Source of the DNA: Eledone cirrhosa
Lineage: Eukaryota
Assembly: GCA_964016885.1 (NCBI GenBank)
Contig: OZ024757.1
Coordinates: 39,122,001 to 39,186,000, forward strand
Length of the DNA stretch: 64,000 nucleotides
Direction: 5' to 3'
Positions 24,556 to 27,033 of the stretch are shown one piece after another. The notes under the pieces were generated by a model. That model saw only the letters and a program-made list of their open reading frames with translations, was not told where the DNA came from and did not search any database. The stretch's first letter is position 1. Each line of letters opens with the position of its first letter. A program made the translations under genes and the position numbers.

Positions 24556-24714
24556 ATAATTGTTTCTACTTTTGGCACCAGGCCAGCAATTATCCCAGTG
24601 CATTACTGGTACTTTATTTTATCGACCCCGTAAGGATGAAAGGCAAATTTAACCTCGGCGGGATTTGAACTCAGATCATAAAGGCGCCCGACCCTCTACC
24701 GATACTGCGACAAT
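24556..24714 (-). mobile_element. SINE (main family)
   Basis: Reverse-complement homology with an internal deletion. Confidence 0.85.
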
Positions 24715-24715
24715 C

Positions 24716-24990
24716 CCTCAAATGTATCCCAGTTATACAAGTACGTATGACCGCGTTCAAATTACTTGATATATATATATATATATAATATATATAATCA
24801 AGTAATTTGAACGCGGTCATACGTACTTGTATAACTGGGATACATTTGAGGCATTGTCAATATATTATTGAGATTGTATATATATATATATATATATCCA
24901 AGTTAAAACAATGAAATAAAAATGCAAGTCATTAGGAATATACTTTACTGCTTTACGATCGTTTCTAGGTGATAATAATACATCGTACGT
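24716..24990. mobile_element. Perfect 55-bp inverted repeat around (TA)n, with adjacent half-hammerhead
   Basis: Arms 24716-24770 and 24797-24851 are exact reverse complements. Minus strand 24948-24986 has GAAA-cgatcg-TA (palindromic ACGATCGT), truncated around stem II. Confidence 0.6.
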
Positions 24991-25128: not shown

Positions 25129-25913
25129 TTATGTGTGTCTCTGTGTGCATGGTGGACCTCCGTCATTTCTGACAACGAAAGCTCCAGTGACTGAGAATTC
25201 CACACCCTTAATATAATGTTCAGGTAGATTGAGACAGCATCGTGTCACAATGTGACTAGCGTTACCTCTTGACTGTGCAGGTACAACGTACTTTTACCAC
25301 CTGAATCAACTGTTTCTCTCTGCCTAAACTAAGTTACGGGATAATTTTACTATCTTGAGAATATATTAGTCGTAGTAGTATTCTATTGTATTAGGATAGG
25401 GAAAGACCAACTTCGAACACGTTTCATATAATCTAATGATGTGCAGTAGGTGTTTATTGTTCACAGTATTACAATTTCTGTCTGTGTGCAGCTATAATCA
25501 TTTATGTAAATAACCATTTCCCCGGGGCCTATACATATAATAAGAACATTAATGGAAATAATATTGTCTAAAGTGAAAAACTCTTGTTGGTATAAAGTCA
25601 TCGTCCTATTTGGTTTTGTCAAAAATATTTCTATAGCTGACATCTAGAAAGGTGAGGTCAACACAAACAGTTTGCAGAGTTGTTGGATGTAAAGAGCAAT
25701 TCTTGCGTGGGGGATCACACACACACACACACACATATATATTTCATATATATATATGTATGTATGTATGTATATATATATATATGTATATATATATAAT
25801 CTGAAGACTAAAATTCAAAAAGTGCTCGATGGGGATAAATATATATCAAATATATAAGAACCCTAGAGCAAATATTTATCTTAATAAATATATTTTAATA
25901 AATATATATATAT

Positions 25914-26166
25914 TTAGTTATGTAATAAACAAAATAAGATAATTATTTCATTTACCAGTGGTTTCCTGAAAGCAACCAAAATTGCTTTCATTCATCAGAA
26001 TGAAAAAATCCTGGTGTCTGATGAATGAAAGCAATTTTGGTTGCTTTCAAGAAACTACTGGTAAATGAAATAATTATCTTATGTTGTTTATTACATAACT
26101 AATAAGCTCTGTAGCCTACATAGAGCATTTTTTTTTCCTGGACCTTTCCGACGGAATTACTTCATT

Positions 26167-26170
<4 letters not shown>
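25914..26170. mobile_element. Fold-back hammerhead mini-element in (TA)n
   Basis: Near-perfect ~86-bp inverted arms 25914-25999 and 26017-26102, each containing the hammerhead core. The + copy begins at tCTGATGA. Confidence 0.75.
25946..26005 (-). ncRNA. Complete type-I hammerhead ribozyme
   Basis: Minus strand tttcatt-CTGATGA-a-tgaaagcaa(ttttgg)ttgctttca-g-GAAA-ccactgg-TA-aatgaaa: 7-bp stem I, 9-bp stem II, short stem III, GUA triplet, all core nucleotides canonical. Confidence 0.85.
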
Positions 26171-26216
<46 letters not shown>

Positions 26217-27033
26217 ATATCGACTAGAAATTGATTGACATATAAATATATCTAAAATAAACATATGAAACAATCACAGGGGATAATTTCTAGTTGATAT
26301 AAAATGCTCGGATCTATTCATTGGAATATTGGAACATATTTTACGGGTGATATGGCGCATGTCTATCTGACATGACACCCTTAATTTAACTTAATTTTGG
26401 ATATATATATATATATATATTTATTTTGAATATATACGAGGGCGGCCGACCAGGGTAGAAGATGTTGAATGTTCGGTCGCTCTCATGTCTCTGATTTTTC
26501 AGCCCCATGGATTTTGTCTATTGTCTTCTTCCTTTGTTATATTTGTGTTATGATGTCACCGGATTCATACTGAACCCGGTCATTGAAATGATCATAGTAT
26601 AACAAACCTTTCAAGGAAGTAAACCAATCCAGCCTCCTGTTATTTTATAATATATTATAGATATATATATATATATATATATTTATTTGTCATATATATA
26701 TATATATGACAAAAAAGAAAATAAATAAATAAGTAAATAAACAGACTAAATAAAGATGGCGCAGGCATACAGTACAACGGGAGGAAACATAATAGCACCA
26801 CTGACGATGCTGCAATTGTGCAACGAAAGAACTTTGTTAGACTATATATATGTGTTTATGTCTATATTATATCTGTATTTTTGGCCGTTGGTCAGTGAAT
26901 GGTAACATTGAGGACCGAATAAATTAAATTAACCGATATACAAGACACAGAAGCGAAAACCAACCAAACAGTGAGTGTGTTCTGTTATTAATTCTGGCAA
27001 TATTATTACCCAAATATGACCCTCCCCAAGTAT

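Follow-up and report, generated by a model that had tools for sequence, protein, structure and literature searches.

The closest described relatives of the locus analysed here are Penelope-like elements (PLEs) and the hammerhead ribozymes that they carry. Hydra-clade PLEs are recognized by RWK, DKT and CxCX5C motifs and by CxxC and CxH around a conserved E and N (PMC8557442, cited throughout from parts of its text and supplement), and many rows of File S2 of that study show U·U at positions 10.1–11.1 of the Hydra-clade hammerheads. The same source describes PLEs with an inverted 5′-truncated copy and with a tail restricted to one end, lists Penelope-13_HM (Files S1 and S2) as having an inverted copy and hammerheads on both strands, and names the formation of PLE inverted structures as unresolved. 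Hammerhead pairs on opposite strands have also been noted in metazoan PLEs (PMC4209133, likewise cited in part), whose hammerheads are said to have a highly conserved G–C as the basal pair of stem II (10.1–11.1). Another PLE protein has been reported to cut and extend both strands of AT-rich DNA, with two internal reverse-transcription start sites bounding the tail (PMC11167929). A literature search returned no paper on the PLE family of the present locus, and PMC8557442 was its only match for octopus Penelope hammerheads.

The locus lies in a 64,000-nt stretch of Eledone cirrhosa DNA (the whole of which is referred to as the window), from a microsatellite-rich genome of 3.0 Gb. A preliminary description had claimed an inverted pair of hammerheads with arms able to pair over ~86 bp, and this was found: the arms at 25914–25999 and 26017–26102 form an inverted repeat of 86 nt with 83 positions matching (three mismatches) and a 17-nt spacer. 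Its fold has a z-score of −21.5 against shuffled sequences, well outside chance expectation. That description had missed the continuation of the plus arm for ~70 nt beyond the inverted repeat, as well as the fact that both arms belong to a high-copy repeat, of which L002 in Table 1 is a natural copy. The minus arm has 18 nt of extra family sequence on its 5′ side that is absent from the plus arm, and the plus arm alone has the tail; as each arm holds family sequence missing from the other, neither was copied from the other. In tandem copies the tail sequence opens the 5′ UTR, and at two loci (L077 and L065) it runs on into the ORF. A target duplication is not readable at a locus flanked by (TA)n. 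The sequences farther out, at 25802–25887 and 26223–26400, are repeats too; the left one starts with a CTGAAGA core-like motif, is matched at 83–92% by 18 stretches in other examined loci and is likely to be the end of another element. A separate inverted repeat lies at 24709–24858 (62 nt, 98% matching), with arms pointing inwards around a TA run, a geometry opposite to that of the PLE pair.

Table 1. Features of the head-to-head locus (positions in the window)
Feature	Position	Strand	Basis
Short arm, 5′-truncated pseudo-LTR end of a Penelope-like element, 106 nt	25914..26019	−	98.1% identity to L002 over 106 nt
Short arm, ending at the untailed (short) 3′ end of the family	25914..26019	−	In end cluster q94–98
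Long arm, 5′-truncated pseudo-LTR end, 156 nt	26017..26172	+	96.8% identity to L002 over 156 nt
Head-to-head junction, 3 nt microhomology common to both arms	26017..26019	.	Overlap of 3 versus natural copy L002
One-sided tail, ~63–69 nt, between the two family 3′ end points	26103..26170	+	End clusters q94–98 and q157–163
Left (TA)n flank, likely target microsatellite	25902..25913	.	Sequence
Right (TA)n flank, likely target microsatellite	26168..26220	.	Tandem Repeats Finder
Type I hammerhead motif	25946..26005	−	Sequence, pairing

In the minus-strand hammerhead, stem I pairs 26005–25999 with 25952–25946 (7 bp), the C3–A9 core lies at 25998–25992 with A10.1 at 25991, and stem II takes up 25990–25967 (nine Watson–Crick pairs and one G·U). 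G11.1 at 25966 is followed by GAAA (G12–A15.1) at 25965–25962, a palindromic stem III and GUA at 25955–25953, which puts the predicted cut between 25953 and 25952. Everything that a type I core requires (C3–A9, G12–A15.1, U16.1 and H17) is present. The complete core, the lengths of stems I and II, the GUA site and the position of the cut had thus been described correctly, as had the absence of the 5′ strand of stem I from the plus copy: the long arm is truncated one base before C3, so that only 1 bp of this stem is possible, and it has its core at 26018–26024 and GUA at 26061–26063, with stem III altered from C to T at 26056. Judged by sequence and pairing, the minus motif is a real type I hammerhead with an intact core. 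The term ‘fully canonical’ was too strong, as the 10.1–11.1 pair is A·G instead of G–C and stem III is of the weak palindromic dimer type, with a predicted energy of +0.4 kcal/mol as a hairpin versus −8.2 kcal/mol as a self-duplex; it is not stable in a monomer. No hammerhead family was reported by Rfam, either at the gathering threshold (0 matches within the window) or among the 30 matches at E ≤ 10. A microRNA precursor was rejected, since every Rfam hairpin match fell below the gathering score and reflected only the long hairpin. Elsewhere in the window, a minimal hammerhead of PLE type that belongs to another family is found at 2259–2300 (+), and with one additional base following A9, G10.1–C11.1, a 4-bp stem I and no stem III loop it is nearer to the published consensus than the motif at 25946–26005; a CUGACGA…GAAA motif with a short hairpin and TA at its end lies at 26796–26845 (+).

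Searching the genome with the plus arm gave 2,808 candidates, with 94–100% identity among the 40 that were scored, and 5,448 sites matched a degenerate ribozyme pattern exactly (control, 0). In the first 100 of these sites, read by eye, the 10.1–11.1 pair is U–A in 79, A·A in 12, C·A in eight, A–U in one and G–C in none. G at 11.1 is nearly private, with two exact matches genome-wide versus at least 130 with A. Sister families (at L085, L087, L088, L093, L096, L097, L100 and L107) have the 3′ end and the core in common and a different, longer stem II; at these eight loci the 10.1–11.1 pair is A–U, C·U, C·A or U·U. The A·G of the window need not kill activity, since mismatches here are common in Hydra-clade hammerheads and the pair is variable among sister families; the parts of PMC544870 and PMC2837043 available to us give no rates for 10.1–11.1 variants. 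The core is kept across sister families and stem II is altered by compensatory pairs, with three double changes in L093 and others in L096 and in the sister family at L013, so the hammerhead fold looks to be under selection in the element.

As tblastn found no ORF remnant within the window, the parent element was identified through other loci. Upstream of the ribozyme end the family has a microsatellite-rich 3′ UTR. At L031 a tailed end is found on one strand, and the opposite strand carries the 3′ half of an ORF and a UTR of ~1.8 kb, followed by the same ribozyme and, within (TA)n, a short end. This partial ORF led to one of 714 amino acids (once 715) that is intact at 16 distinct places among the 20 stretches examined, each with a related ribozyme end downstream that is ~83% identical to that of the window. 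The window subfamily is only 83–85% identical to the ends of the intact-ORF copies, and no intact ORF of this subfamily itself was found in the loci examined; a broken ORF at L026 has 79.5% identity overall to the 714-residue ORF. Tandem copies have a period of ~4.3 kb and inverted units are also present. The loci L063–L082 (e.g. L077:2620–4761) hold a young subfamily with near-identical intact 714-residue ORFs, tandem and inverted, which was probably active recently.

The 714-residue ORF has RWK at 41, DKT at 118, YRDD at 350, CxCX5C at 559–567, CxxC at 662–665 and CxH at 693–695. Pfam gave no family for it at E ≤ 0.1, although 1,342 relatives were found, and a PDB sequence search matched no solved structure. 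A structure model (pLDDT 93.4, built from 110 sequences) was submitted to Foldseek, and the top eight matches were telomerase reverse transcriptases (RTs), with E values of 2e-8 to 9e-8. A VVY…YVG strand pair followed by R, H, E and N can be seen by eye in the C-terminal region, and one homologue carries PF01541, which we take to be the GIY-YIG family; this motif inspection and the one homologue suggest a putative GIY-YIG endonuclease domain. Turning to the traits of the Hydra clade, insertion into (TA)n is seen in the window flanks and in 3,400 exact matches to the short end that continue into TA (a count that takes in sister families; control, 0), and the pseudo-LTR occurs in tandem and inverted form with the hammerhead inside and a one-sided tail. 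The single ORF with a telomerase-like RT is present at the parent loci and not in the window, and the unit exceeds the length of <3 kb that is a tendency, not a rule, of the clade. The window arms appear to be ends of a new Hydra-clade Penelope-like family, the clade being assigned from the motifs and the modelled fold. Separately, a coding-like stretch of higher GC content at ~40300–41800 of the window resembles a LINE RT by eye.

The 3′ ends of the family are sharply placed. Among the 123 ends with enough 5′ sequence in the examined loci, some of which overlap, 51 fall at q94–98 (window 26101–26105) and 69 at q157–163 (26164–26170), with three elsewhere; the minus arm ends at the first point and the plus arm at the second. 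Genome-wide, short and tailed ends number roughly 3,400 versus 858, both rough counts that take in sister families with another stem II (8 of 30 loci) and internal tandem junctions, respectively. A head-to-head partner within 1.5 kb was found at 13 of the 30 best tailed loci, counting the window, and, among the first 30 short-end loci on C1, at 14, with very short partners escaping BLAST in both counts, and 25 of the 27 pairs consist of one short and one tailed end. Ten pairs are as compact as that at 25914–26172. Still shorter pairs, joined inside or downstream of the ribozyme, number 106 and 91 (sets that partly overlap; controls, 1 and 9), and as these have no intact ribozyme, a complete hammerhead is not required for the layout. 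The junction could be resolved at 27 of 29 loci, with overlaps of −27 to +9, so that microhomology is no general feature. In many ultra-short inverted pairs the junction falls inside the palindromic stem III (e.g. G000:C1:28036041–28036075), which seems to act as the junction microhomology in these cases.

The locus very probably consists of two 5′-truncated, hammerhead-bearing ends of a high-copy Penelope-like retrotransposon that lie head to head in (TA)n and are likely to stem from one insertion event. What was observed directly is that the arms belong to the family, that the family is linked to an RT ORF and has two fixed 3′ ends, how the arms are joined, and that the layout recurs. In such an event the element endonuclease would nick both strands of the TA run and each nick would prime reverse transcription on element RNA, one cDNA starting from the short site and the other from a site ~65 nt downstream; both cDNAs would then stop early and be joined via the 3 nt of microhomology. 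This scheme is modelled on the PLE findings of PMC11167929 and PMC8557442. For the family at large, we lean slightly towards two-ended insertions being primed asymmetrically by rule, with one target strand using the short site and the other the tailed site ~65 nt downstream, as a dimeric RT-endonuclease would do on one or two RNAs.

A functional regulated ribozyme, in which a transcript of the host or of the element would be cleaved by the minus hammerhead, itself switched off via a duplex with the antisense arm, is very unlikely. The completeness of the core, the intact stems I and II, the tolerance of 10.1–11.1 mismatches in the Hydra clade and the compensatory stem II changes that speak for selection of the fold in the element are all consistent with it, and for the minus copy trimmed to 60 nt the predicted gap between the active fold and the minimum is just 1.3 kcal/mol. 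Within the 79 nt of its natural context, the core is misfolded by the 5′ flank of the copy, and the active fold is 5.7 kcal/mol above this misfold (compared with costs of 4.7 kcal/mol for L002 and 4.2 kcal/mol for an intact-ORF copy), with G at 11.1 predicted to worsen the misfold slightly; all of these energies are predictions for monomers. In read-through RNA the predicted ribozyme fold is 64.7 kcal/mol above the duplex for the minus strand and 57.8 kcal/mol above it for the plus copy in the plus strand, with stem pair probabilities of 0.0 in both. The ~86-bp duplex that had been proposed for a read-through transcript is thus the predicted dominant fold, and the two competing folds proposed with it are not supported: with the ribozyme fold 58–65 kcal/mol higher there is a single dominant fold and no real competition. 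In addition, the order of the sequence means that the antisense arm is transcribed first on the minus strand, the weak stem III depends on another copy of the same sense whereas the partner here is antisense, and a single PLE motif gave no cleavage in the work excerpted from PMC4209133, in which single-motif hammerheads of this type are inactive and dimers weak. The same inverted layout recurs with the ribozyme cut away, which points to an insertion mechanism rather than to regulation. The minus motif had been called the best candidate for an active ribozyme; it is one among thousands of retrotransposon-end copies and is of the dimer-dependent kind, for which single motifs are reported to show weak or no cleavage (PMC4209133). 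As read-through RNA would form the 86-bp duplex, the hammerhead at 25946–26005 is predicted to be a silent passenger of the PLE insertion. In the element itself the pseudo-LTR hammerhead probably acts on tandem element RNA, either as a dimer or assisted by protein; a PLE hammerhead needed protein in PMC11167929.

A fossil of in vivo cleavage, visible as 5′ truncations piled up just after GUA, was rejected, as there was no specific pile-up once controlled. Counting by eye in the first 50 of the 106 pairs joined inside the ribozyme, ~34 of 100 arms start at 0 to −2, using a pattern that is blind to starts downstream of the cut site. The control with a downstream anchor (first 50 of the 91 pairs, also by eye) gave 6, 5 and 11 arms at 0, −1 and −2, together with 15 at +1, 10 at +6 and 13 at +7, which follow AT-rich microhomology. 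For solo copies, 4 of ~30 start at 0 to −2 (among the first 100 of 620 overlapping rows).

We give almost no weight to a later inverted duplication of one copy by fold-back replication or repair, or to two independent insertions back to back. The 97% likeness of the arms would fit a duplication, but each arm has family sequence missing from the other and each stops at a family end point. Other local inversions exist (such as that at 24709–24858) and (TA)n runs attract repeated insertions; the ends are nevertheless unlike in 25 of the 27 pairs, though short ends outnumber tailed ends in the rough genome-wide counts. The chance that the hairpin is an assembly artefact of fold-back long reads is negligible: no contig from three public runs (X1–X3, one sample) spans the whole stretch or can confirm the junction, but the arms differ at 3 of 86 positions, their ends are unequal and family-defined, and the same layout is found at many loci with different junctions. 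A MITE or foldback DNA transposon was rejected, as the arms are 106 and 156 nt long and the junctions differ at every locus, and a non-LTR retrozyme was rejected, as there is no head-to-tail tandem array of the hammerhead unit at the locus.

For PLEs, the literature already describes inverted copies, tails on one side and hammerheads of this kind. Within the literature searched, the longer tail and unit, the absence of G10.1–C11.1 from the sample and the counted pairing of short with tailed ends go slightly beyond what is in print. The locus itself, a dead stub of a common retrotransposon, matters little, and it carries a caution: in such genomes, hammerheads in inverted pairs resemble riboswitches but have their source in PLE insertion. 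The family is of some value: its intact ORFs are young, its 3′ ends fall at two sharp points and short ends pair strongly with tailed ones, all of which is relevant to the formation of PLE inverted structures and to the role of PLE hammerheads. If asymmetric priming is true, the hundreds of compact pairs and at least 16 intact ORFs would make it the first Hydra-clade test system for PLE inversions and tails, and the same system would test cutting by a hammerhead that lacks G10.1–C11.1.

Among known systems, the family resembles the Hydra-clade C-terminal EN+ PLEs of PMC8557442 in its RWK, DKT, CxCX5C, CxxC and CxH motifs, its (TA)n targets and its type I hammerhead with a palindromic stem III and a 1-nt loop, for which Hydra-1_oBim has the same ACCA-N-TGGT form. 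The inverted 5′-truncated copy with hammerheads on both strands is like that of Penelope-13_HM. Hydra-1_Obim is a different family, with an N-terminus that is alike but clearly diverged (compared by eye only). Going by the parts of PMC8557442 cited here, the unit of ~4.3 kb with its 1.8-kb microsatellite-rich 3′ UTR contrasts with <3 kb in the Hydra clade, and the 63–69-nt tail with published PLE tails of 30–40 nt. The metazoan PLE hammerheads of PMC4209133 are similar in being of type I, within a pseudo-LTR, with a long stem II and a small palindromic stem III, and in occurring mostly as solo or truncated copies with opposite-strand pairs 100–700 bp apart and a predicted dimer activity; relative to the excerpted text, the present family differs in having no G10.1–C11.1 (0 among the first 100 of 5,448), a GUA site and a 7-bp stem I. 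The Poseidon PLE of Anolis, PAc (PMC11167929), likewise has two RT start sites that bound the tail, a hammerhead upstream of these sites and an AT-rich target of which both strands are cut and extended. It belongs to a different clade and has an ORF that starts inside stem II, whereas the ORF here starts ~250 nt downstream of the ribozyme, and the main text of PMC11167929 does not show inverted PAc insertions that pair unlike start sites. Non-LTR retrozymes, according to parts of bioRxiv 10.64898/2026.07.22.740005, are also non-coding, derive from PLEs as short pieces and carry a type I hammerhead, but form head-to-tail tandems, in contrast to the head-to-head pair and scattered truncation points seen here. 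With copies in the thousands and intact ORFs numbering at least 16, the family also stands apart from the Hydra-clade PLEs in the parts of PMC8557442 cited here.
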